Below, in pieces: positions 1,461 to 62,956 of a stretch of DNA of 64,000 bases. The DNA lies in assembly GCA_001001345.1 (NCBI GenBank), contig LCKI01000001.1, positions 339 to 64,338 on the forward strand, given 5' to 3'. The stretch is from Parcubacteria group bacterium GW2011_GWC1_45_14 (GTDB lineage: Bacteria; Patescibacteriota; Minisyncoccia; Moranbacterales; GWC2-37-73). The translations under genes were made by a program, and so were the position numbers. The notes beneath the pieces were generated by a model that worked only from the letters and a program-made list of their open reading frames with translations, was not told the DNA's origin and ran no database searches. Each line of letters starts with the position of its first letter. The stretch's first letter is position 1.

Positions 1461-2231
1461 TTAGCGGCATTTGAGATACATTAAAAACTCCTTTTTTCCT
1501 TTTCCTCCCAGAATAGGAGAGTCCGTGATTCCTATGATTTCAAACCCTAAATCTTTGGAGAGATTTTTTATTTTTTCGATGACTTCTTCGTGGAGATTTT
1601 CTTTGTTCACTATACCTTTTTTGATATGCTTTTTTCCTACTTCGAATTGCGGTTTGATGAGCGTGACGATTTCCCCTTTGGTTGAAATCAGTTCAGCGGC
1701 TTTCGGTAGGATATGCGAGAGGGAAATGAATGAGACGTCGATGCAGATGAAATCCAAAAGCTCGGAAAAATTTTCCTTGGATAGGTTTTTGATATGGGTG
1801 TTTTCCATATTCACGACCCTCTCGTCGCTCCTCAGTTTTTCCGCCAATTGTCCGCTACCCACGTCGACGGAGTAAACTTTCTCAGCCTTGTTTTCCAGTA
1901 GAACCTGGGCGAATCCTCCGGTACATGCTCCAAAGTCGGCGCATATTTTATTTTTGACGTCGATGTTCCAATGCTCCAATGCATGTTCCAGTTTCAAGCC
2001 GGCGCGCGAAACCCAGGGAATGTCCTGTTTAATTATTTCAATTTTTGAATTCTCATCCACTTGCTGGGTGGGTTTTGTCGCGATTTTGCCATTCACCCTG
2101 TTAAATTGCTCCGCACCGCCTTCAGCGGATTTAACAGGGTAAATCAAAACACCCCCGTCTTTAATGAGGTTTTTGGCGCGCTCCCTTGATTGCGCCAAGC
2201 CATTTTTTACCAGTAATGCATCCAGTCTCAT
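1461..2231 (-). CDS. tlyA: TlyA-family rRNA 2'-O-methyltransferase (S4 domain + FtsJ-like MTase)
   Basis: S4-like N-terminus (RLDALLVKNGLAQSRERAKNLI), FtsJ motif DFGACTGGF; contains in-frame repeat insertion at 2091-2143. Confidence 0.8.
   Translation of the reverse strand: MRLDALLVKNGLAQSRERAKNLIKDGGVLIYPVKSAEGGAEQFNRVNGKIATKPTQQVDENSKIEIIKQDIPWVSRAGLKLEHALEHWNIDVKNKICADFGACTGGFAQVLLENKAEKVYSVDVGSGQLAEKLRSDERVVNMENTHIKNLSKENFSELLDFICIDVSFISLSHILPKAAELISTKGEIVTLIKPQFEVGKKHIKKGIVNKENLHEEVIEKIKNLSKDLGFEIIGITDSPILGGKGKKEFLMYLKCR
2091..2143. repeat. Palindromic nested-hairpin element copy A, inserted in-frame inside tlyA (encodes YPVKSAEGGAEQFNRVN)
   Basis: ttcaccctgttaaat ... atttaacagggt inverted arms with internal hairpin, same family as copies at 11359, 14846, 14921, 42951, 56444, 62888. 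Confidence 0.6.
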
Positions 2232-2243
2232 ATTATTCGAAAA

Positions 2244-4043: not shown

Positions 4044-4411
4044 AAATTTTTAACGGCAATTTCAAATGCCAAATTGTAAATTTCAAATCAATGTCTTAAT
4101 TGCAAAATGTTTTAAGATTTGTCATTTGAGAATTTAAAATTCATTTGGAATTTGAAATTTTTAATTTGTAATTCTTATAAATAAAAAACACCCTGAAATA
4201 TGAGAATAGGAAAAATTAATTTTCCAATATCGAGGCTTCCGGTTTCGTTCGGAGGCGGTTCCACTCGATTTCCCATAATTTCTTGGGCACTTTATGCGCC
4301 TATTCGTAGGCCGCTTGAACGGAAGCTCCGCGGATGGTTGGGCCGCATCTGCGCTTCATTCGATTGTGGTTTTATTATATGGAAATATGACCCATTTGTC
4401 AATAAGTATAG

Positions 4412-10369: not shown

Positions 10370-10490
10370 ATACTTAAAGTCCTAATTTCAAATTTCAGAT
10401 TTCAAATCAAATCCTGATATTCAAACCTTCTGGTTTTGATAGCTGGCATTTATTTGACGATTGGCATTTGGATTTTGGAATTGAAATTCC

Positions 10491-11174: not shown

Positions 11175-11203
11175 CGTATTTCGGTATCTTTGGAAGTCGG
11201 CGG

Positions 11204-11236
11204 ATTTTTTCCGTCGACTTTTTTAATTTCCAGCCG
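11204..11236 (+). terminator. Rho-independent terminator after rnc
   Basis: aagtcggcgg-atttttt-ccgtcgactt stem then T-run. Confidence 0.45.
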
Positions 11237-11358
11237 CCTTTTCAGTTTGCAAATCGCATCAAAAAGGGGTAAAATTAAACCATAAACTGTTTGAATCATC
11301 AATTTATTTCAAGTATTCCATAAGCTGTTATTTAAGAAATAGCTCAAAAAAATAAAAA

Positions 11359-11427
11359 ACAAAAATTCACCCTGTGAAATCCCCGACGAGTCGGGGTCCG
11401 CCTCCAGCGGAATTTCACAGGGTAAAA
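11359..11427. repeat. Palindromic nested-hairpin element copy B, 5' of the amidohydrolase gene
   Basis: acaaaaattcaccctgtgaaat ... aatttcacagggtaaaa with two internal hairpins. Confidence 0.6.
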
Positions 11428-14558: not shown

Positions 14559-14686
14559 GATTTATTTGGCCGTGCCGCGTGATCATGAGTGAACGTTCTT
14601 CTGCGTACCCACGTAAAATAATTTCTGTTGAAATTATCACGTGGCTCGCGAAAATCATTCACAAATGAACTCATGATTTTACGCGG

Positions 14687-14715
14687 TTGCTTTTTGGGAA
14701 AAAGTGTGCTATAAT
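14687..14715 (+). promoter_or_regulatory. Sigma70-like promoter TTGCTT-17-TATAAT followed by 6-codon mini-ORF (MKGVSP) and hairpin/T-run
   Basis: -35 at 14687-14692, -10 at 14710-14715, terminator-like hairpin around 14735-14770. Confidence 0.4.
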
Positions 14716-14845
14716 GGATATACGAAGGTAAATGAAGGGTGTTTCTCCGTAAGGGGAGCCCTTTTTTGCTTTTATATGGCCCTCCTTCGCACGAGGCTTC
14801 GGGCGGGTAAAAAGAAAAATGAATATTTCAATAGAAAACGGTTCT

Positions 14846-14910
14846 TTTTACCCTGTTAAATAATCCTGCTTGGGCGGGATTGCCGCTTAACGGCATTTAA
14901 CAGGGTGAAC
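14846..14910. repeat. Palindromic nested-hairpin element copy C1
   Basis: ccctgttaaataat ... atttaacagggtgaac. Confidence 0.6.
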
Positions 14911-14920
14911 AAAAATAAAT

Positions 14921-14990
14921 ACAAAAATTCACCCCTGTTAAATTGCGCTTGTAGCGCACCGGCCTTGCCGGATTTAACGGGGCAAGAAAA
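14921..14990. repeat. Palindromic nested-hairpin element copy C2 (tandem with C1)
   Basis: acaaaaattcacccctgttaaatt ... gatttaacggggcaagaaaa. Confidence 0.6.
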
Positions 14991-15063: not shown

Positions 15064-15102
15064 AAAAAGAATCCTGATTTAAAAGGATTCTTTTTGTTTT
15101 TT
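15064..15102 (+). terminator. Rho-independent terminator upstream of murA leader
   Basis: aaaaagaatcct-gatttaaa-aggattcttttt then gttttttc. Confidence 0.5.
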
Positions 15103-16577: not shown

Positions 16578-16641
16578 AAAAAAATTTCTAATTTCCATTT
16601 TTTAATTTTTAATCAAATCTAAATTTTAAATTTTCAATGGG

Positions 16642-17343: not shown

Positions 17344-17403
17344 AATTTGGTCATTGGAAATTGTTTAGGAATTAGAAATTAGTAATTAGAAATTTTTTAT
17401 CAT

Positions 17404-42131: not shown

Positions 42132-42950
42132 ATTTTCACCTTCCTTCCTAGTTTAATCATTAATGGCCGAATGCTTTCGTTGAAGCGCCCTTAAAGCTCC
42201 GAAGAGCTTCTCGACCCACTCTTTCCTTCATTGTATAAGAGGCATATTTGCGCGTCAACTAGACAATGTGGGCATTTATTGTCGTAATAAAGCGGCAAAG
42301 AACACCTTATCATTCGCTGATTGCCTACCCTAATAGTCAGATATTTTCCCGAGGAAGCAGGGAGGAGGTGATCGGGAATCGAGAAGAAACCGGAGGCAAA
42401 TTTTCGAAAAAGGGCGTAGCTGATCATAAGAGAAATAGCGGATATTTTTTTTCAATATTTTTTTAAAAAAAATAAAGTGAAAAAATGCCTTGCTAAAATT
42501 TTTTTTGAAAAATTCTGACAAGGATAATGTTCGATCCCACGAATGATCCCTGGAGGAGTGGCGGATTGGTTGGGCGGATACACTGCGTGACTTTTTCACC
42601 TTACCTGATATTATCCAGTAAAAATCGATGTTAAAAACATTTTGAAAAAATAAAAATCATTTAAAAATTTTTTTCACCTCCCGTAACTTTTTACGCGGTG
42701 AAACGGGTGGGTGTGGATAACTTTTTTGCATTGCTTTTTTAAAAAAATAACTTATACTTAAGACATGAGAAAATTATTTTTGAAAAATATTTTTAAAAAT
42801 AATTTGTAGTAAGTTCTGTGAAAACAAAATTTAAAAATTAAAATAAAATTTTTTATACCGGTGCATCAAATGATGTTGTCGGGAAAAAAATAAAAGCTGT
42901 CGAAGATGCGGTGTGCGGATGTTGGTCTTGCGTCTTTCTCAAAGATAAAA

Positions 42951-43025
42951 ACAAAAATTCACCCAGTTAAATAATTTTGCTTTTGGCAAAATTTCCGCAA
43001 AGCGGAATTTAACGGGGCAAGAAAG
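42951..43025. repeat. Palindromic nested-hairpin element copy D
   Basis: acaaaaattcacccagttaaataat ... aatttaacggggcaagaaag. Confidence 0.6.
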
Positions 43026-43106
43026 ATTATCTGAAAAAAAGACGCGGGGCTAACAGCTTCGTATACTACAGGATTTCTGACAGTATTTTAGAAGGAGGTG
43101 ACTATC

Positions 43107-43244
43107 ATGGCAAAGAAAAAAGTAGCTAAAAAAGCAGTAAAAAAGGCTGTAAAAAAAGTTGCAAAGAAGAAAGTTGCTAAAAAAGCTCCTAAAAAAGCTG
43201 TAAAAAAAGTAGCAAAGAAGAAGACTGCAAAAAGAAAAAAATAG
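43107..43244 (+). CDS. 45-aa Lys/Ala-rich histone H1-like basic protein (MAKKKVAKKAVKKAVKKVAKKKVAKKAPKKAVKKVAKKKTAKRKK)
   Basis: GAAGGAGG RBS 7 nt upstream, followed by terminator; below ORF-track length cut-off. Confidence 0.55.
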   Translation: MAKKKVAKKAVKKAVKKVAKKKVAKKAPKKAVKKVAKKKTAKRKK

Positions 43245-43348: not shown

Positions 43349-44269
43349 TCAATACGTCAAAGTGACTTTCGCCACCCTCCATTTTCCGGCCAGATCTTTT
43401 TTAAATTCCGTTTTCGCCTCGGGAAAGATTTCTTTTATGAGATCTTGAAGAGATGTTTTTTGCTCCGGACTTATTTCCATGTAGCATGTGACGTGTGCCA
43501 TTCGGCATGCAAGCGATTCCTTTATCTGGCTAAGAAGTTCCTCGTAGTGGCCCAGGCCTTGCTTGGGACTATACAGCGCCGATTTCGGTTCGAAATCCTT
43601 CACATCCTTGGGCGCGCTTTCGTAAATATCTTTTGAGAGATAGGGGAGGTTTGCCAGAATCACTATTTTAGAATTTCTAATTTCTAATTTCAAATTTCGA
43701 ATGAGCGGCTCGAGCAGGCTTCCATGCAGAAAGTCTACATCGTCAGCTACCTTATGGAGCTTGGCGTTTTTCTGGGCAACTTCCAATGCATCTTCACTCA
43801 TGTCGATCCCAAATAATGAGACGTGCTTATTGTTTTTCAATTCATGCGCAAGTGAGATTATGATGTTTCCTGATCCTGTTCCGATGTCGGCGACCGCGAT
43901 GCCGTCGCTTTGGCTGCGCAGCCCATCTTCGTCATGTTTCGTCGAGGCAAGCATGTTGCGTAGCAGTTTCAGTGAATCCTCGACGAGTATTTCCGTTTCC
44001 GGGCGGGGAATCAGGGTGTGCTTGTTGACGGAGAAATCCAATCCGTAAAATTCCTTGTGCTCCGTGATGTAAGCGAGCGGCTCACCCTTGATTCTTCTTC
44101 CTATATTTTTTTCAATTACGGATGACTGGTGACTAGTAACTGTCGCCTCCGGATGCGTTAAAATAAATTCCCTCGGCTTGGCAAGGGAATTTGCGATGAT
44201 AATCTCGGTATCGAACGCGTCCAGCTTATTTTTGTATTTTTGGATGATATTTTTGATCGTCATTATCAT
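43349..44269 (-). CDS. prmC: Release factor glutamine N5-methyltransferase PrmC/HemK (NPPY variant LANLPY)
   Basis: [12 protein letters not shown] motif, LANLPY, adjacent to prfA with 4-nt overlap. Confidence 0.85.
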
Positions 44270-48287: not shown

Positions 48288-48339
48288 ATAAATTTGAAAT
48301 TTGAATTGAAAAATTAAGAATTTAAAATTGCATACGAAT

Positions 48340-50765: not shown

Positions 50766-50862
50766 CCGCGTAAAATCATGAGCTTTGCGAGTGATTTAAG
50801 CGCCCCGTGATAATTTGCGAAAGCGAATTATTTTACGGGGATATACCATTAAAAATAAGCTC

Positions 50863-51156
50863 ATGATCACGCGGCACGGCCGTGAGGGATTCTACTATGT
50901 ATATGTCATAGAAAATGACCATGATTTGAGTTGGTATATTGGATTTACGATTAATTTTGGAAAAAGATTGCAGGAGCACAACTCCGGTAAATCACCGTAT
51001 ACTTCCAGGAAACAGGGAAAACGGAGGGTTATATATGCGGAGTGTTATCTTTCCAAAAAAGATGCGTTGTCAAGGGAGGAATTCTTGAAATCCGGTTCTG
51101 GTAGAAGATTTTTAAAGAACCAATTAAAGAACTACTTGCACGCGACGCCGTTGTAG
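50863..51156 (+). CDS. GIY-YIG nuclease domain protein (YhbQ/UPF0213-like), stop overlaps 5' end of tRNA-Thr(GGU)
   Basis: FYYVYVIEN...WYIGFTINFGKRLQEHNSG. Confidence 0.6.
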   Translation: MITRHGREGFYYVYVIENDHDLSWYIGFTINFGKRLQEHNSGKSPYTSRKQGKRRVIYAECYLSKKDALSREEFLKSGSGRRFLKNQLKNYLHATPL

Positions 51157-51505: not shown

Positions 51506-51667
51506 ATGGGACACATCAAGGACACGATGGCGAAGATGCGATGCTCCGAATGCAAGGAGATCAACTATTATTCTTCACGCAACAAGAAGAAAGTGAAGGA
51601 GAAACTTGAGATGAACAAGTATTGCAAGAGATGCCAGAAGCATACGCTTCACAAGGAAATGAAATAA
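51506..51667 (+). CDS. rpmG: 50S ribosomal protein L33
   Basis: [44 protein letters not shown]; below ORF-track cut-off. Confidence 0.8.
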
Positions 51668-51733
51668 CCTGTCAGTCGCGACTGACGGGTTAAACCCGTT
51701 GCTCGCGAGCGACGGGTTAGCTCCTTCTGACTT

Positions 51734-51982
51734 ATGCATTACGTCTATCTTCTTAAATTGGAAAACACCAAAAAGAATTTTTATATTGGTTGTACTTCTG
51801 ATTTGAAGAGGCGTTTACGTGAGCATCAGTCTGGGAATACTCAAACGACAAAAGGAAAAAATCCCAAACTTATCTATTATGAAGCATTTTCCGATAAGGA
51901 TTTGGCTCAAAAAAGAGAAGAGGGATTGAAAACAAGCGGATCCGTTTATAATGCGCTGATAAGAAGGTTGGGATTAAGATAA
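51734..51982 (+). CDS. Second GIY-YIG nuclease domain protein, flanked by 20-nt direct repeats
   Basis: HYVYLLKLEN...FYIGCTSDLKRRLREHQSG. Confidence 0.6.
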   Translation: MHYVYLLKLENTKKNFYIGCTSDLKRRLREHQSGNTQTTKGKNPKLIYYEAFSDKDLAQKREEGLKTSGSVYNALIRRLGLR

Positions 51983-51986
51983 GATT

Positions 51987-52055
51987 GCGGGCATCGTATA
52001 GTGGTAATACGGCGGTCTCACCAGTCAGTCGCGACTGACGGGTGTCTCCAAAACC
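51987..52055 (+). pseudogene. Pseudo tRNA-Trp: 5' half (to anticodon loop) carrying 26-nt palindromic insertion with ctc duplication, no T-arm/3' half
   Basis: identical to 52088-52120 of intact tRNA-Trp then accagtcagtcgcgactgacgggtgt insert. Confidence 0.45.
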
Positions 52056-52087: not shown

Positions 52088-52158
52088 GCGGGCATCGTAT
52101 AGTGGTAATACGGCGGTCTCCAAAACCGTTAACGTGGGTTCGATTCCTACTGCCCGTG
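52088..52158 (+). tRNA. tRNA-Trp(CCA)
   Basis: anticodon loop CTCCAAA, T-loop GGGTTCGATTCC, acceptor GCGGGCA/TGCCCGT. Confidence 0.75.
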
Positions 52159-52355: not shown

Positions 52356-52497
52356 AATTAATGAAAAAACGCTTATTTAGGGCGTTTTTTTGTATCTTCT
52401 ACTTCTATAATATTTTTTAATATTGACAATTTTTTTAAAACCTTGTATATTTTCATGAAAGTTTTGTTCCTTAAACAATTTCGAGAGGAGAAGCGCC

Positions 52498-53496
52498 ATG
52501 CCTAAAAATAGCTTTTATTTTCAGTGGCATATCACTGATTTTTGCGGCAATCGTTGCACACATTGTTATTTGAATGATTTCAATAAAACCAAGGTCTCCT
52601 TACGAACAGCGCGAAAGATCATGGATGACATGCAAGATTGTTGTAGTGAGCTTGATGCTGAAACAATCTTATCCATAACTGGAGGTGATCCACTTACTCA
52701 TCCAAACATTTGGGAAATTCTTGAGCAGGCGAGAAAATTTGTTCGCAAGTTGGCTGTTTTGGGAAATCCCGAGTTACTTAATGAAAAAAGTATAGGGAAG
52801 CTACAGAGTATAGGAATTGATTGGTATCAAGTTTCCCTGGATGGCTTACAGCAAACCCATGACAAAATTCGTAGTCCGGGAAGTTTTCAAAGAACCGTTG
52901 GTGGCATTAGGAGATTGGTAGATGCGGGCATTACGGTTGTTGTGAATTCGACCATTTCGGATTTGAATCTTAATGAAATGTCGGATGTCATGAGGTTGTG
53001 CTATAACTTGGGTGTTGGAAAATGGTCGTTTGCTCGTTATGTTCCAAATAGTGGAACGTGCGGACTAACAGCCAGGGAATATAACAATTTCCTGAAAGAA
53101 GTGTATCGTGAATCAATTGATCTAGCGGGAGAAAAATCAACCTTCATTTCAGGGGATTCCCTGATGAATTCTGCTATTGATAGACCTCAAGATTGTGATA
53201 GTATTGTAGGAGGATGTGCGCTCGGTGGCTCCGCAATGTGCATATTGCCTGATAATACTGTTATGTCTTGTCGTAGACACAAGGAAAGTTCCTTGGGCAA
53301 ATGGATGAAAAAGGGCGATTTATTGGAACTTTTTCTTTTTCATCCAAAAATGCAAGAGTATCGGAAAACAGAGTTGATTGAAGGATGTGGAAAATGTGCA
53401 TTTAGGTTTCAGTGTCGCGGATGTCGTGCATTAGCACTTGCTCAAAGCGGAAACACATTTGGGAAAGATCCCCAATGTGTCATTACTGACAGCTAA
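52498..53496 (+). CDS. Radical SAM / SPASM-domain peptide-modifying enzyme
   Basis: CGNRCTHC (CxxxCxxC) near N-terminus, C-terminal Cys clusters CDSIVGGCALGGSAMC...GCGKCAFRFQCRGC. Confidence 0.8.
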   Translation: MPKNSFYFQWHITDFCGNRCTHCYLNDFNKTKVSLRTARKIMDDMQDCCSELDAETILSITGGDPLTHPNIWEILEQARKFVRKLAVLGNPELLNEKSIGKLQSIGIDWYQVSLDGLQQTHDKIRSPGSFQRTVGGIRRLVDAGITVVVNSTISDLNLNEMSDVMRLCYNLGVGKWSFARYVPNSGTCGLTAREYNNFLKEVYRESIDLAGEKSTFISGDSLMNSAIDRPQDCDSIVGGCALGGSAMCILPDNTVMSCRRHKESSLGKWMKKGDLLELFLFHPKMQEYRKTELIEGCGKCAFRFQCRGCRALALAQSGNTFGKDPQCVITDS

Positions 53497-53519
53497 TAGC
53501 TGGGAAAGGAGAATGAGTG

Positions 53520-53639
53520 ATGCCTAAGCGGAAAAAAGCGAATGTGGCAGCTGCCAAAAAAGAATTGCAGCGGCAAGGGTTCATTTCCAAGGCTTCGGCC
53601 GAAACTTGCGCCATCTGCACCGGCATGGATGGGGACTAG
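53520..53639 (+). CDS. Candidate RiPP precursor peptide (39 aa, MPKRKKANVAAAKKELQRQGFISKASAETCAICTGMDGD)
   Basis: AAGGAG RBS 8 nt upstream of ATG, 24 nt after rSAM stop, C-terminal CxxC. Confidence 0.45.
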   Translation: MPKRKKANVAAAKKELQRQGFISKASAETCAICTGMDGD

Positions 53640-53715
53640 GAAGCATTCTGGTCTCAAGACGGGAGAGGAGGCAAATGCTTCTTCTCCCGTTTTTTATTAA
53701 TACTTCAGTATCAAT

Positions 53716-54309
53716 ATGAATAAAAAATATTTAAAAGTTGAAAGTTTTTATAATTCTAACTCCCAAGGTTATGCGGAAAATTCGGCAGTTATTTTGCGTG
53801 AACAGGTAGGATATTTTCTTTCTAGTATTCCTGATAATGGTCGTATTCTAGATGCCGGTTGTGGTCCTGGTCATGATACGGAATTTTTTTCAAGAAAAGG
53901 ATTTGACACTACAGGTATAGACTTCTCTGTCGAGATGATTGAATTTTGTCGAAAACATAGAAAGGGTGGCGTTTTTAGAAAGATGAATATGTTAGATATG
54001 GGCAGGAATTTTCCCAGAAATTATTTTGATGGAATCTGGATGTCGTCATCAATTACGCATCTGGAAGACAGGGATATTATTAAAGTATTAAAACAAGCAA
54101 AGAACATTCTCTTGGAAAATGGAACGTTGGCAATTATTATAAAAAGAAAGTTCAATAATAAATTGCAGCCAAGAGAAATATTATTCAGGCAATTTTATAA
54201 AAAAGAAATCATAAGTCTATTAAAATTGTCGGGTTTTTCAAAAATTAAATTAACAGATTTTGAAGCTTTGAATAAGAAATGGCTTTTTGTTCTTGCGAAT
54301 AAAGCTTAA
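53716..54309 (+). CDS. Class I SAM-dependent methyltransferase
   Basis: ILDAGCGPGHD motif I. Confidence 0.8.
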   Translation: MNKKYLKVESFYNSNSQGYAENSAVILREQVGYFLSSIPDNGRILDAGCGPGHDTEFFSRKGFDTTGIDFSVEMIEFCRKHRKGGVFRKMNMLDMGRNFPRNYFDGIWMSSSITHLEDRDIIKVLKQAKNILLENGTLAIIIKRKFNNKLQPREILFRQFYKKEIISLLKLSGFSKIKLTDFEALNKKWLFVLANKA

Positions 54310-54458
54310 TTCTTTTTATAATTTTCTTAATAGGCTGTTTGCGCGCTGCAATCTGACATCGATTCTGTCCCAATTTTCCAAAATATTGTTCCTAGTCGTA
54401 TCCATAGCCCGTGCAAACAGTAAAAATGCCTTTATATGGGCATTTTTGCGTTTTAGTC

Positions 54459-54487
54459 TTGACATAAACAAAAAATAGGAGTATAAT
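54459..54487 (+). promoter_or_regulatory. Consensus sigma70 promoter TTGACA-17-TATAAT
   Basis: -35 54459-54464, -10 54482-54487, followed by AAGGAGG RBS and ATG 54554. Confidence 0.55.
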
Positions 54488-54553
54488 ATATGGTCATGGA
54501 AATGACGATTTATAGTTTACTTAACCACGCACCTTAAAAAAAGGAGGAAGTGA

Positions 54554-55381
54554 ATGAAAGTGGAACTGCAAGAACAGGTCAGGAAGCTGGAGAAGGATAT
54601 CCGCCTGAAATCCGCTGAAGCCGCAAGAATTTCGGAGGAAAACGAAATTATCCGTGCGGAGGACGGACGTTTGCGTGAAACCATGAATTTTCGGGAACGC
54701 AATCTTGGCGGCTGGTTTGGCGGCGACAGGAATAAGGTGGCGAGGGTTCGCGAGCTTGAAATGAAATCCGCAGAACTTGATTCGCAGGCAAGCAATTTGG
54801 GGCAAGAGGCAGAAAAGTGCGAGAATGACCTGAAAGTCTTCATCGATGCCTATCTTCGGAATTGCGACGCGAGTTATCAGTCACTCGTCCAGCCTTACGA
54901 TAGGGCTGTCGAGATGAAAAAAGCCATCGCTGTTTTTCTGGAAAAAATCGACATCGCGCTTTCTGAAATCGGCGACGCGCAAGGAATGGAAACGATCGAT
55001 CTCTTAAGTAGCAACAAGGGGATAGCGGCTCTCTCTTACATGGAGAATTCCGAAGCAAGTGATGCGATCGACGAGGTCCGTGCGGCTGTGAAAATTTTCC
55101 AAGAGGCCGTTATCGCTTATAAGGATTCTTCTGGAGGTTTCCAGTCTTCCAAGATTGAAACGGAGATAGGCGACGGTATCGATCTCGTATTCGATTTCGC
55201 CTTGGAAGGTTTCGACTTCATGAGTATCTTCACCCTTTCCGCGTTAGGCGATGCGGAAGACGAATTGAGCGATGTTCGTGAAAAAGTGAACAAGTTTGAT
55301 GAAATCTTCTCCGATTATTTCGCAAAGATGGAGGAAGCCGTTACTTCCTATATCCGCAATGTCAGAGTTTCCTGCGCTTGA
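54554..55381 (+). CDS. Hypothetical coiled-coil protein, likely highly expressed
   Basis: consensus promoter, strong RBS, terminator hairpin at ~55405-55436. Confidence 0.55.
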   Translation: MKVELQEQVRKLEKDIRLKSAEAARISEENEIIRAEDGRLRETMNFRERNLGGWFGGDRNKVARVRELEMKSAELDSQASNLGQEAEKCENDLKVFIDAYLRNCDASYQSLVQPYDRAVEMKKAIAVFLEKIDIALSEIGDAQGMETIDLLSSNKGIAALSYMENSEASDAIDEVRAAVKIFQEAVIAYKDSSGGFQSSKIETEIGDGIDLVFDFALEGFDFMSIFTLSALGDAEDELSDVREKVNKFDEIFSDYFAKMEEAVTSYIRNVRVSCA

Positions 55382-55533
55382 TCGCTCAGGAAAAACATGC
55401 GACCCGTCACTTATCCAAGTGGCGGGTCGTTTTTAATTTCATTCGCTTCGGTTTTGGTATTTTTCAAAAATATAGGGAATCGGGATTTTTCGTGATAAAA
55501 TAATGGGGTAATAATCAGTCTGGTAAATTATAT

Positions 55534-56319
55534 ATGAAAAGGAATTTTTTTATCACCCTTTTTTCTTCCATGGTTCTTTTGACGGCCAATATTTCTTTTG
55601 CTGCTGATTGTGAATGGCCAAGCAGGCCTACCGATTATCAGACAACGGTTGAAAATTTTAGGAAGGCGGAAAGCCGTTGCGATCCGGACGATGCGAAGTT
55701 TAATTTGGAAGAATGCAGAAAATGTTGCGATAGGATAGACACCATAAAACACAGTGAGCCATGGGGCGGTGCGCATCCTGGTGAATGCAAGATATTGAAA
55801 GATCCGCCTACGACCAAGACAGTCAAAGTCGCCCCCATTGCTTCTCCGATTATCACGCCTGCAGTTAAAAGCGAAGCCGTAAAAGCAGTCGATGATAATG
55901 CCCAAATAGAACAGCAAAAACAAAAAGAAGAGCTTGAACGCCAGCAGGAAGAGATTATTCGAAAAAAAGAACAGATCAGGGATGAATTGGAAAAAGATGA
56001 GCTTGAAAAAGAAAATTTATTCAAAAACCAAAAAAATCTTGTCGCTTCCATTGAGAACAAAAAAGCCGCAATAGTCTTTTTGCTTGGTCCTGATTATAAA
56101 AACATAGGTCAGCTTAGAAGCGAGTTGGTAAAAAATTCCGCACTTTCAAAAAAGCTTCAGGAAAAGTTGAATGACGAAATGGACGAGGAGAGTAGGATTA
56201 TGATCCAAGAGGAAATCCAGCAAATATCAAGTCAGCAAGAAACTATAAATAATGTTATTGAAAAAAGTGAAAATGTTTTCAGTTTATTCGGATGGGCCTT
56301 TAAATTCCTTGGAAAATAG
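55534..56319 (+). CDS. Secreted Cys-containing coiled-coil hypothetical protein
   Basis: signal peptide MKRNFFITLFSSMVLLTANISFAADC. Confidence 0.5.
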   Translation: MKRNFFITLFSSMVLLTANISFAADCEWPSRPTDYQTTVENFRKAESRCDPDDAKFNLEECRKCCDRIDTIKHSEPWGGAHPGECKILKDPPTTKTVKVAPIASPIITPAVKSEAVKAVDDNAQIEQQKQKEELERQQEEIIRKKEQIRDELEKDELEKENLFKNQKNLVASIENKKAAIVFLLGPDYKNIGQLRSELVKNSALSKKLQEKLNDEMDEESRIMIQEEIQQISSQQETINNVIEKSENVFSLFGWAFKFLGK

Positions 56320-56443
56320 TGCCAATGTTCTTACAATGAAATTATAACGGACATGCATCATCATGATATGATGCATGTCCGTTTTTTTATTTTTTATGTC
56401 GTTTGTGGTAAAATAAAATCACTTGAAAAAACTTCATATAAAA

Positions 56444-56508
56444 ACAAAAATTCACCCTGTTGAATCCCCGATGCTTCGGGGTCGGCTGGGCCGAATTCAA
56501 CAGGGTAA
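56444..56508. repeat. Palindromic nested-hairpin element copy E, right arm abuts ATG of oxidoreductase
   Basis: aaaacaaaaattcaccctgttgaat ... attcaacagggtaa. Confidence 0.6.
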
Positions 56509-57873
56509 ATGAAAAAAATACTTTCAATCGGTTGCGGAGGAGCTGGAATGTTCAGTGCCATCGTCGCGACGCAACTGAGAAAGGGGGAATTTGAGGCGAT
56601 AGTGCTTTCGGATGAGAAGGATATCTATTGCCGTTGCACGACGCCGTATATCGTGACGGGAGAAGCCCAGCTATGCGACGCTATCCAGCCGGAGAGCATG
56701 ATCGAGAGTTATGGTCCGAAAATCGTGCATGAAAAAGCTATCAGTATAAATACTAAAAAGAAACACGTCCTTACGAAAGAAGGGCACATTTTCGATTATG
56801 ACTACCTGGTCATCGCTACCGGAGCATCTCCCTTTGTTCCCCAAATCAAGGGAATAGATTCCGAAAAGGTCTATACAGTCAGAAACAGTTCCGATATGGA
56901 ATGCATCCAAGGGTGCCTGGGAAAATCCAAGAGCGCGGTCGTGGTCGGCGCGGGAGTCATCGGGATCGAGATGGCGGGAGCGCTAAGAGCCAGAGGTCTG
57001 GACGTGAGTTTGGTGGAATACGCGTCCTCGCTTTCTTCCGGCATCGCCGACAAGGAATTTTCCAAAAAAATAATCTCCCACCTGGAAGAGAATGGAATAA
57101 GGACGATGTTCAGAAGCAAAGTCGTGGAGATCAATGACGCATCAAGAAAAAGAAAAGAAATAGTTATTAAAAAAGGAAGGAATCAGGAGAAACTGGTCGC
57201 CGATTTCGTGGTAGTGGCGGCGGGAATACGCCCCAATTTGGATGTCATCGAAGGAACGAAGATCAAAGCCAATCAATTCGGGATATTGGTTGATGGGAAA
57301 ATGCAGACGAACGCGAAGGACGTCTATGCTTGCGGAGATTGCGCTGTGCCTATTTCGGCGGTGACTGGAAAAAACGAGCCGAGCTCGCTGGCTTCAAGCG
57401 CTATCCAACAGTCCAAGATCGTCGGCTACCAGATGGCCAGTTTTCCAATCAAATATGCCGGCTCGACCGGGGCGTTCGCTTTCCAGACGCTCGGAAAAGA
57501 ATATGCGGCTGCGGGACTGACCGAGGAGGAAGCGCGCAAGAAATTCAGGTGGGTGGTCGTTGGACGCGCCGCGACTACGGATGTGTATAAGGATTTGGAA
57601 CGTAACAAGCCCTTGGACGTGAAACTGATCTTTGCCGGACCCAAGATGAGGTTGGTCGGTTATGAAGGTTTCGGCAACGGAGTGATCGCCTCGGCGGAAG
57701 TGGCCAGTTTCGCGATCGGACTCCGTCTGAATATCTTGAAAGTCCTGAAATTCAACTACATCGCTCATCCGAGCCTGACTCCTTGGCCGTTCATGAATCC
57801 GATTATCATGGCGACCGAGGACGCGGTGGGGAGTATTATGAAAAAAATCAAGGTTTTTTTCGGGAAAAAATAG
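56509..57873 (+). CDS. FAD-dependent pyridine nucleotide-disulfide oxidoreductase (NADH oxidase/CoA-disulfide reductase family)
   Basis: GCGGAG FAD motif, VVVGAGVIGIEMAGAL NAD motif, redox Cys YCRCTTPY. Confidence 0.8.
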   Translation: MKKILSIGCGGAGMFSAIVATQLRKGEFEAIVLSDEKDIYCRCTTPYIVTGEAQLCDAIQPESMIESYGPKIVHEKAISINTKKKHVLTKEGHIFDYDYLVIATGASPFVPQIKGIDSEKVYTVRNSSDMECIQGCLGKSKSAVVVGAGVIGIEMAGALRARGLDVSLVEYASSLSSGIADKEFSKKIISHLEENGIRTMFRSKVVEINDASRKRKEIVIKKGRNQEKLVADFVVVAAGIRPNLDVIEGTKIKANQFGILVDGKMQTNAKDVYACGDCAVPISAVTGKNEPSSLASSAIQQSKIVGYQMASFPIKYAGSTGAFAFQTLGKEYAAAGLTEEEARKKFRWVVVGRAATTDVYKDLERNKPLDVKLIFAGPKMRLVGYEGFGNGVIASAEVASFAIGLRLNILKVLKFNYIAHPSLTPWPFMNPIIMATEDAVGSIMKKIKVFFGKK

Positions 57874-61491: not shown

Positions 61492-62907
61492 ATGGCGGAG
61501 AAAAAGGAAAACATGATGGAAAAAATCGTTTCGCTTTGCAAAAGGAGGGGTTTTGCGTTCCCTTCATCCGAAATCTACGGAGGGTTCGCGGCTATCTATG
61601 ATTACGGGCATTACGGAACGCTTCTCAAAAACAATATCCGCGACGCCTGGTGGAGGCATATGGTGCAATACAGGGATGACGTCGTCGGTTTGGACAGCGC
61701 GATCTTCATGCATCCCACGACCTGGAAAGCTTCCGGGCACATAGACAGCTTCGATGATCCGCAGATCGATTGCAAGAAATGCAAAGCCAGGATGAGGGCG
61801 GACCATGTCTTGGAGCTTTTCGGCATCAGCGCCGACAAGGCCCCCTTGGATTTCATCAATGTCGAATTGGGGAAATTGCGCGAACTTGGAAAATTGAAAT
61901 GCCAGACTTGCGGTTCGGATGAATTGACTGAGGCGAAAAGATTTTCCTTGATGGTCAAATCGAATCTGGGATCCCCGACGGATGCCCTCAGTGAGGAGAA
62001 TGTGGTGTATTTGCGTCCGGAAACTTGCGGAGGGATATACTTGGAATACAAAAACACTTTGGATTCGACCCGCGTGAAACTCCCTTTCGGAATAGCCCAA
62101 GTGGGAAAAGCGTTCAGGAATGAAATCGTGGCGAGGCAGTTCGTTTTCAGGACGAGGGAATTCGAGCAGATGGAGATGCAATACTTCCTGCACCCGAAGG
62201 ATATGAAGGAGAAATATGATATGTGGAAGCAGGTCAGATGGGATTGGTACAAGGAATATGGCATGGGCGAGGATGATGTCAGGTGGTACGAGCATGAGAA
62301 ATTGGCGCACTACGCTTCGGAAGCCTATGACGTCGAATATAATTTCAAATCCTTGGGAGGCTTCAAGGAAGTGGAAGGAATCCATGCTAGGGGCGATTGG
62401 GATCTTTCCCAGCACAGCAAGTTCTCCGGAACCGACCTGAGTTATTTCGATGAAAAGACTGGAGAGAAATTCATTCCCCATATTATGGAGACATCAGTGG
62501 GTCTCAACCGTCTGTTTTTGATGTTTATCGACAAGGCTTACACTGAAGAGGAAATCAGCGGTGAGATAAGGACCGTCCTTAAGTTCGACAAGAGGTTGGC
62601 TCCGATTAAGGTCGCCATCTTCCCTTTGATGAAAAACAGGCCCGAACTGGTCGGAAAAGCCAGGGAAATCTATGACAATCTCAAACTCAGTTTCATGTGC
62701 GAATTCGACGACAACGGAAATGTCGGAAAAAGATACCGCCGACAGGACGAGATCGGAACCCCGTATTGCGTAACCGTGGATTTCGATTCTCTGGAAAAAG
62801 GCGACGTGACGGTGCGCGACCGCGACACGATGGAGCAGGAAAGGGTGAAAATAGAAGAATTGGAAAATTATTTCACGGAGAAGTTTAATGTTCACCCTGT
62901 TAAATAA
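61492..62907 (+). CDS. glyQS: Glycyl-tRNA synthetase, alpha2 dimeric type
   Basis: KRRGFAFPSSEIYGGFAAIYDYGHYGTLLKNNIRDAWW N-terminus; last 5 codons and stop supplied by repeat copy F. Confidence 0.85.
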   Translation: MAEKKENMMEKIVSLCKRRGFAFPSSEIYGGFAAIYDYGHYGTLLKNNIRDAWWRHMVQYRDDVVGLDSAIFMHPTTWKASGHIDSFDDPQIDCKKCKARMRADHVLELFGISADKAPLDFINVELGKLRELGKLKCQTCGSDELTEAKRFSLMVKSNLGSPTDALSEENVVYLRPETCGGIYLEYKNTLDSTRVKLPFGIAQVGKAFRNEIVARQFVFRTREFEQMEMQYFLHPKDMKEKYDMWKQVRWDWYKEYGMGEDDVRWYEHEKLAHYASEAYDVEYNFKSLGGFKEVEGIHARGDWDLSQHSKFSGTDLSYFDEKTGEKFIPHIMETSVGLNRLFLMFIDKAYTEEEISGEIRTVLKFDKRLAPIKVAIFPLMKNRPELVGKAREIYDNLKLSFMCEFDDNGNVGKRYRRQDEIGTPYCVTVDFDSLEKGDVTVRDRDTMEQERVKIEELENYFTEKFNVHPVK

Positions 62908-62956
62908 TTTTGCTTAGGCAAAATTCCTGCGCTGCAGGATTCAACGGGGCAAGAAT
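62888..62956. repeat. Palindromic nested-hairpin element copy F overlapping glyQS stop
   Basis: ttcaccctgttaaataat ... attcaacggggcaagaatc. Confidence 0.6.

Follow-up and report, generated by a model that had tools for sequence, protein, structure and literature searches.

What is the short palindrome that recurs about once every 9 kb across 61 kb of the genome of an ultra-small bacterium? We address this question for a 64,000-nt stretch of contig LCKI01000001.1 (assembly GCA_001001345.1; hereafter "the window") from Parcubacteria group bacterium GW2011_GWC1_45_14, a member of the Candidate Phyla Radiation (CPR; Parcubacteria/Moranbacteria lineage) first seen in Rifle groundwater metagenomes. 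An earlier note on this DNA had described a family of nested-hairpin repeats and likened it to miniature elements of the REP/BIME, Correia, or Rickettsia palindromic element (RPE) kind or, alternatively, to a small structured RNA family. We conclude that the copies are probably small, non-autonomous mobile palindromic DNA elements, of the same kind as MITEs (miniature transposable elements with inverted repeats), repetitive extragenic palindromes (REPs), and RPEs, because they are present in some close relatives and absent from others, are inserted in frame in genes, have no recurring neighbour gene, and occur in both orientations. These observations favour the first of the two comparisons made in the earlier note, and the family, of which no description was found in the literature searched, seems to add a new variant to this kind, one that crosses phyla.

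Anatomy of the element

A covariance model (R1), built from 11 copies with the same layout drawn from ten sources (nine other loci and the window), recovered exactly seven copies when applied, unfiltered, to the entire window (45-84 bits, E <= 2e-9; Table 1). The best match outside the family reached 19.7 bits. The copies are 52-64 nt long and correspond to the seven coordinate pairs listed in the earlier note, each of which holds a copy, whereas its total of eight was a miscount. The arm ACCCTGTTAAAT, with up to two mismatches allowed, occurs 15 times in the window versus 5.4 +/- 2.3 expected, a number that none of 100 shuffles reached. Assembly artefact, which the earlier note had named as a way to refute the family, does not account for the copies, because identical ones are present in the independent assemblies L001, L002, and L127 (L numbers denote loci from other assemblies and P numbers proteins).

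The layout of the element is TTYA-CCCTGTTAAAT-(hairpin)(hairpin)-ATTTAACAGGG-TRAA. An 11-nt, nearly invariant inverted repeat (CCCTGTTAAAT / ATTTAACAGGG) encloses one or, usually, two short palindromes and is extended outward by TTYA and TRAA, so that the terminal arms (TTYACCCTGTTAAAT / ATTTAACAGGGTRAA) span 15 nt with 11 nearly invariant positions. Predicted folds agree with the earlier description of shared arms that close around one or two hairpins: in six of the seven window copies, a closing stem of 12-15 bp directly abuts two hairpins with no unpaired bases at the junction, copy 1 having a single hairpin, and fold z-scores range from -3.4 to -7.0, with none of 200 shuffles folding as well. 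The resulting Y-shaped three-way junction is available to each DNA strand and to a transcript. A common arrangement sets an 8-9 bp AATT...AATT hairpin next to a 5-bp G+C hairpin whose loop is 3 nt long, and either of the two may come first; the family as a whole ranges from 44 to 64 bp, with variants of up to ~150 bp.

In most lineages, the sequence of the interior is variable, yet its hairpins are retained. Across 124 aligned R1 hits, 94.8% of positions are paired (the alignment having been made against the model, with many copies entered on both strands), and in the two inner helices all 14 pairs show changes on both sides, with ~97% of cells paired and G-U pairs rare. Loop sequences are not conserved among copies, and the flanks of 57 CPR copies contain just four conserved bases past CAGGG (T-R-A-A). 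The compensatory arm changes reported in the earlier note are confirmed: copy 2 has GTGAAAT/ATTTCAC, and copy 6 has GTTGAAT/ATTCAAC. They do not by themselves prove the selection on structure that it drew from them, since palindromic DNA can also change in pairs through intrastrand template switching.

Table 1. Copies of the palindromic element and the associated A-rich tract in the window
Feature	Position	Strand	Context	R1 result
Copy 1	2092..2143		One hairpin; within tlyA (1461-2231, minus strand)	45.0 / 43.7 bits on the two strands
Copy 2	11366..11426		5' untranslated region of amidohydrolase gene; ATG (11438) 12 nt downstream	Found by R1
Copy 3	14847..14909	+	murD-murA spacer, first of tandem pair	74.1 bits (+), 41.3 (-)
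Copy 4	14928..14986	+	murD-murA spacer, second of tandem pair	47.6 bits (+), 34.8 (-)
Copy 5	42958..43021	+	77 nt upstream of 48-aa Lys-rich open reading frame (43098-43244, plus strand)	84.2 bits
Copy 6	56451..56509		Adjoins first ATG (56509) of pyridine-nucleotide disulphide oxidoreductase open reading frame	49.3 / 44.3 bits on the two strands
Copy 7	62891..62953	+	Overlaps 3' end of glycyl-tRNA synthetase gene (glyS, 61492-62907)	66.5 bits
A-rich tract ATAAAAACAAAAATTCA	11353..11369	+	Precedes copy 2; also 14915-14931 (copy 4), 42945-42961 (copy 5), 56438-56454 (copy 6)	

Filled and empty sites

Comparison with syntenic DNA of close relatives showed that most of these sites exist in an empty form. 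In L128-L131, whose amidohydrolase is 79-85% identical to that of the window, up to 20 kb of syntenic DNA contains no copy; alignment shows the site of copy 2 to be empty in L128, L129, L130, and L131, and the sites of copies 3 and 4 both to be empty in L129. The site of copy 6 is likewise empty in L150, a Moranbacteria genome with an oxidoreductase 88% identical. The same genome carries an orthologue of copy 7 in the same position and, at the site of copy 5 (L150:1390-1442; also L151 and L152), a different, degenerate palindrome, CCAATTC...GAATTGG, with a right half similar to that of copy 5; this may be a decayed orthologous copy.

The insertions sit at junctions that are T-rich on one side and A-rich on the other: AATT^GAC, ATTTC^AAAAC, TCTTT^AAAAC, AATTC^CGCC, and AAAAA^CAAAA, where the caret marks the insertion point. 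The TTYA and TRAA ends of the element overlap the target bases by 0-3 nt. No consistent target duplication emerged over five filled/empty comparisons, among relatives diverged by 5-15%, such that single-base duplications could be missed; AAAATTC is repeated at the junction of copy 4 alone. We had also considered the 17-nt left flank ATAAAAACAAAAATTCA, found in the window next to elements only, as part of the element itself. We dropped this idea: the relatives' empty sites already hold the A-tract, as AAAACAAAAA(TTC), and the flank is therefore mostly pre-existing target sequence. Separately, ~67 nt immediately upstream of copy 2 (11286-11352) have no counterpart in L128 or L129 and hold CTGTTTGAAT...ATTTCAAG, possibly what is left of an earlier copy.

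The orthologous pair of copy 7 gives a view of how the element changes once in place. Between the window and L150 there are 10 substitutions, which fall on none of the 26 hairpin-stem bases, on 4 of the 7 loop bases, and, in five uncompensated cases, on the arms. With the flanking DNA ~11-13% diverged (counted by eye in the same alignment), sparing of all 26 stem bases has P ~0.03-0.05. Selection for the fold, or templated repair inside palindromes, could explain the unchanged stems.

Insertions inside genes

Copy 1 is an in-frame insertion of 48 nt in tlyA, encoding the 16 residues YPVKSAEGGAEQFNRV. The filled form of the gene is found in the window and in P0002 (L149), and the empty form in P0003 and P0004 (L148), which are otherwise almost identical to P0002; all more distant aligned TlyA homologues lack the 16 residues. 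At the DNA level, the pair L149 versus L148 is the cleanest of the five comparisons, with 48 nt lying between ATT and GAC/AAT and no duplication. The peptide predicted to span the insert is LIYPVKSAEGGAEQFNRVNGK, and peptides of the YPVKSAEGGAEQFNR type are predicted for in-gene elements. The Pfam match to the S4 domain of TlyA ends at residue 30. An AlphaFold2 model places the insert in a low-confidence part (pLDDT below 50, residues 37-41) between strands 28-31 and 49-51 of that domain, with the remaining fold intact. The L149 gene, from metagenome-assembled genome GCA_003508985.1, is itself a mosaic: over L149:354-560, compared with window positions 2040-2240, it is identical to the window for the first ~195 nt, element included, and L148-like thereafter. 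From the sequence, either the element-bearing segment would have moved by homologous recombination or the assembly would be chimeric.

At the other end of the window, copy 7 replaces the C-terminus of glycyl-tRNA synthetase (GlyRS), its left arm supplying the last codons, HPVK, and a TAA stop (predicted end ...NVHPVK). Such placements recur elsewhere, with at least ten housekeeping genes of other genomes harbouring the element in frame. Among the matches listed from the search described below, ~106 copies lie away from locus edges, of which 13 are within long open reading frames (ORFs) and 12 overlap ORF ends; in-frame hosts confirmed by Pfam in other genomes are GatA, KsgA, a GT4 glycosyltransferase, Pol III delta', DsbD, MalK, ExbB, a class-V aminotransferase, and LeuRS. 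Nine of the 13 listed in-ORF copies encode (H/Y/C)PVK...FN(R/G)(V/A) and two encode TLLN...LTG; that in L110 starts with TLLN and ends with FNRV. The third frame of the element holds a TAA stop, which results in a bias of frame and orientation inside genes.

Distribution across bacterial lineages

The search for further copies that the earlier note had proposed extended the family well beyond this genome. An exact-arm pattern scan of one genome per species, with the arms fixed and the interior free, returned at least 120 loci in several phyla. Counted from record titles among the matches listed, these comprise at least 44 loci in Patescibacteria, at least 38 of Desulfobacterota type, at least 12 in WOR-3 / Stahlbacteria, at least 9 in Omnitrophota, at least 4 in Bacteroidota, and at least 13 singletons and unclassified loci, some of the singletons looking like mis-binned contigs. 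About two thirds of the copies listed fold into two hairpins, even though the interior was free in the search pattern, and some copies are in tandem or abut one another. A scan of viral contigs yielded one match (L126), and BLAST searches of plasmid and phage collections gave none.

Lineages differ in what the arms enclose or are enclosed by. WOR-3 copies have a different, conserved interior. In Desulfobacterales, the core lies inside a ~190-nt repeat that has its own terminal inverted repeats and unrelated flanks. Either another MITE has taken up the core, or the core acts as a functional module that is portable. We observed this longer repeat in L022, L024, L033, L045, L046, L060, L062, L091, L095, L111, L123, and others, with outer repeats beginning GACGGCTTCGTAAAAAG... 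or GAGGCTGATGGAAAAC.... Longer non-coding variants with the same arms have interiors of 100-130 nt (113-150 nt in total). One with a 104-nt interior, at L137:9870-10000, abuts the ATG of an amidohydrolase gene (67% identical), in the same position in the 5' untranslated region as copy 2, and is preceded by AAAAATAAAAATTCA; either this target was hit twice independently, or the copy is an old one that closer relatives have lost.

Weighing mobility against a function for the host

Several observations weigh against a mobile element. None of the ORFs scanned in the window is a transposase or other mobilising gene, and clustering of 742 ORFs from 121 loci (among the matches listed) found neither a recurrent neighbour family nor a mobilising gene beside the copies. 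Arm pairs enclosing a gene were absent from ~1 Mb of loci, no autonomous parent element was found, and no RAYT gene was seen in the 64-kb window or in loci of 8-20 kb. What the comparisons show is insertion/deletion polymorphism rather than transposition itself, and at least one copy, that in L149, may have moved by homologous recombination. Classical MITE copies are alike throughout and have a target-site duplication, whereas here the interiors differ strongly within one genome and four of the five junctions lack a duplication. Near-identity of the arms from phylum to phylum is difficult to account for unless they have a conserved partner, and no such partner was found. Finally, the unchanged stems of copy 7 hint at a constraint that would be superfluous for a purely selfish element.

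This last point leads to the alternative that survives best, although we judge it quite improbable: that the family is a structured RNA, either a cis-regulatory element of 5' untranslated regions or a small noncoding RNA, with a three-way junction to which a conserved protein or ligand binds. Very stable predicted folds, strong covariation of the inner helices, and stems that stayed unchanged in orthologous copies 7 while the loops changed would all suit such an RNA. So would the start codons that lie immediately downstream of copies 2 and 6 and of the L137 variant, and the promoter-like site (TTGCAA-N17-TAAAAT) upstream of copy 2. The strand with the longer hairpin first is mildly more often sense (20:11 relative to co-directional genes), and strand-specific wobble, as a sign of RNA, is weak (TTTA..TGAA in 11 versus TTCA..TAAA in 6). 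Against such an RNA, the junction lacks conserved unpaired nucleotides, the loops vary, the inner helices contain few G-U pairs, and the palindrome is present on both strands. Neighbouring genes are unrelated and copies are found in both orientations; many lie within the coding sequences of unrelated housekeeping genes, where ribosomes would unfold them, and the same genes in close relatives do without copies. Searches of Rfam 15 at gathering thresholds matched just three tRNAs in the window, and relaxing the threshold to E <= 10 added only chance-level matches, the best being a Phe leader with 20.8 bits versus a cut-off of 55. The structured-RNA alternative of the earlier note is not supported. 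Its statement that no known family is matched stands for Rfam and for the plasmid and phage collections alike. A hammerhead-like or other ribozyme junction was also considered and rejected, as there is no unpaired conserved core at the junction.

Could the host instead retain the copies as terminators, attenuators, or stabilisers of mRNA ends, in the manner of REPs? Many copies are within tens of bases of gene ends, copy 7 marks the 3' end of glyS, and four window copies, read on the minus strand, consist of a stem followed by TGAATTTTTGTTTTTAT. That T-run, however, is on the strand opposite the flanking genes and derives from the A-tract that was already in the target; in the outward flanks of 57 CPR copies, 17 T-rich cases stand beside 14 A-rich ones, which is no enrichment. 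Ordinary terminators, each a hairpin with a T-run, are found beside the elements at 11192-11222, 14741-14759, and 15064-15095, with one more after copy 7, and a terminator scan of regions that include copies 2-5 flagged none of these copies. Flank composition and the separate canonical terminators lead us to reject intrinsic termination, and we regard the broader proposal as very improbable.

Least credible is a site for a site-specific recombinase, integron attC-like or Xer/dif-like. Its attraction is in the arms: TGTTAAAT is identical to the outer 8 bases of what we take to be the E. coli XerD arm, TTATGTTAAAT, and GTTAAAT and ATTTAAC fit what are presumably the attC consensus (GTTRRRY / RYYYAAC) and the XerD-arm core; the structure is also kept around a variable interior, as in attC, and tandem or abutting copies occur. 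We nevertheless reject both the attC and the Xer/dif readings, since the motif order is reversed relative to attC (GTTRRRY on the 5' arm), the stem is a perfect 15 bp with neither extrahelical bases nor an unpaired spacer and is too short for two half-sites (it amounts to one, with the would-be crossover side facing outward and the arms 22-48 bp apart), the copies are scattered among and inside housekeeping genes rather than arrayed as cassettes beside an integrase, and the window contains no dif-like TTATGTTAAAT with one mismatch allowed.

In the literature searched, coverage of which was incomplete, we found no description of the palindrome family, and the arm strings returned only chance matches to primers, including one in a paper on Picrophilus pPO1. 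TIGR-Tas arrays were set aside as a match, being tandem guide arrays and a different thing.

A possible mechanism and its consequences

If the copies are mobile elements, an enzyme encoded elsewhere would recognise the conserved arms, which it would most plausibly meet in the form of the closing stem that a folded single strand makes. The inner hairpins vary in sequence, and so are not a specific recognition element; the 15-bp closing stem is the likely substrate. Mobilisation would then occur in trans and depend on the hairpin, following an HUH/RAYT-type logic: since no target duplication occurs consistently, a mechanism that depends on the hairpin, HUH/RAYT-like or comparable, fits better than classical DDE cut-and-paste. 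The element would insert without target duplication at T-rich/A-rich junctions, about TTY^RAA, where the microhomology could reflect either target recognition or repair-mediated insertion. Pairing in the inner hairpins may be kept by selection for foldability, by intrastrand template switching, or by both. Homologous recombination may spread copies as well, as suggested by tlyA in L149. Effects on the host—a stable structure in a 5' untranslated region, short loop insertions in proteins, the replaced C-terminus of GlyRS—would be by-products.

A more far-reaching version of this proposal is one that we consider doubtful. Here the palindromes would represent a cross-phylum class of hairpin-defined mobile element in which the closing stem of the Y-shaped fold is recognised by a conserved enzyme (HUH-type, another nuclease or recombinase, or a hijacked host function), insertion occurs without target duplication at TTY^RAA-like sites, and essential genes of CPR bacteria and Omnitrophota recurrently acquire peptide insertions and protein termini as a result.

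Few known genomes are as small and streamlined as those of CPR/Patescibacteria, yet an apparently selfish palindrome sits in tlyA and at the end of glyS. That the arms do not vary between phyla suggests a conserved protein acting in trans, which could be traced by correlating the presence of the element with that of protein families. In practical terms, the element is a marker for strain-level insertion polymorphism in metagenomes, and it can mislead gene callers, domain annotation, and searches for noncoding RNA.

Other features of the window

Near the tandem pair, the murD-murA spacer contains a second, unrelated nested palindrome of ~125 nt (14568-14692; minimum free energy as RNA -46.6 kcal/mol, z -4.2), to which R1 gives a weak 19.7 bits. 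Kept in L130 and absent from L129 and L131, it looks like an insertion too. Just beyond it (14700-14770), a promoter-like box, TGCTATAAT, is followed ~50 nt on by a hairpin and T-run terminator (GTTTCTCCGTAAGGGGAGC), an arrangement that is conserved in L129 and may be a tiny small RNA or leader transcript. The 48-aa ORF downstream of copy 5 is rich in Lys and Ala (MTIMAKKKVAKKAVKK...), has a strong Shine-Dalgarno sequence and a 12-nt internal periodicity, and is conserved in L150; its product looks like a histone-H1-like or DNA-binding small protein.

Farther along, a 113-aa ORF with a GIY-YIG nuclease domain (50815-51156, plus strand) lies between tRNA genes, and three copies of a 24-nt perfect-type palindrome, ACCTGTCAGTCGCGACTGACGGGT, are located near it (51667-52043); we found no link between either of these and the repeat family. 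A block at ~52400-56320, with genes for a radical-SAM protein and a methyltransferase as well as two ORFs that have no Pfam match, has a lower G+C (0.408), is absent from the syntenic region of L150, and appears to be a small island beside the tRNA at 52088-52158. Short periodic AT-rich repeats of the type AATTTCNAATTTC recur in many intergenic spacers (4058-4172, 10377-10407, 16583-16613, 17364-17394, 43658-43702, and 48292-48322).

Comparison with known systems

Recombination sites differ from the element. An attC site has the order R''(RYYYAAC)-L''...L'-R'(GTTRRRY), with extrahelical bases and an unpaired spacer, whereas the stem described here is fully paired and its order inverted; a dif site consists of two inverted 11-bp arms around a 6-8 bp centre, and the arms of the window copies face the wrong way for this.

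Mitochondrial double-hairpin elements consist of two adjacent hairpins, are inserted in AT-rich spacers, and are sometimes found in coding regions. Together with GC clusters and repetitive hairpin-forming elements (in fungi, algae, and sponges), they share with the present family the character of tiny mobile palindromes in which structure is kept over sequence, but they are organellar and have no shared invariant closing stem, and we do not imply homology. Among studies of such elements is one on sponges (PMC2800124).

Like MITEs such as Correia/NEMIS, ERIC, and Nezha, the family has inverted repeats at its ends, is small and free of ORFs, is present in many copies, and shows insertions close to gene ends and occasional in-frame fusions. 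The window family is small, non-coding, multi-copy, and polymorphic for presence and absence, as expected of MITEs, and the ~190-nt element of Desulfobacterales, with its own terminal repeats, has the MITE form. The family departs from them in the four duplication-free junctions, in interiors that are unlike between copies, and in that no parent insertion sequence was found. Correia elements have 26-bp repeats and a TA duplication and are not known outside Neisseria.

REPs, BIMEs, and REPINs, which RAYT (TnpA-REP) transposases of the Y1 HUH class mobilise, offer a parallel in mode of life: they too are short, high-copy hairpin repeats that cluster or abut, form mosaics of modules, lack a consistent target duplication, and have a single-strand hairpin as the likely substrate. 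A REP is a single imperfect hairpin, 20-40 nt long, that bears a tag, GTAG or CGTC, at one end (PMC3733652). The window family instead ends in TTYA-CCCTG without either tag and is a nested double hairpin, with a long invariant closing stem around variable hairpins; and while REPs are extragenic and specific to a species or genus, this family is also found in genes, with the same arms across phyla.

RPEs provide the nearest likeness in habit. They are small palindromic repeats of ~100-150 bp, frequently found in frame in unrelated housekeeping genes of reduced genomes, where they encode a conserved peptide tolerated by the fold; they are confined to Rickettsia and close relatives, and their families are alike over the whole length (PMC10969869). 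The element described here is likewise a palindromic repeat without coding capacity of its own, dispersed through a reduced genome, with in-frame copies in unrelated genes that add a conserved peptide. It is, however, smaller (44-64 bp, with variants of up to ~150 bp), conserved only in arms of 11-15 nt, built around a Y-shaped double-hairpin interior, and present in several phyla. Judged on size, anatomy, and hosts rather than on a comparison of sequences, the relation to RPEs is one of analogy and not of membership. The in-frame colonisation of essential genes, a habit once held to be peculiar to Rickettsia, is one that a single element displays in both CPR bacteria and Omnitrophota.

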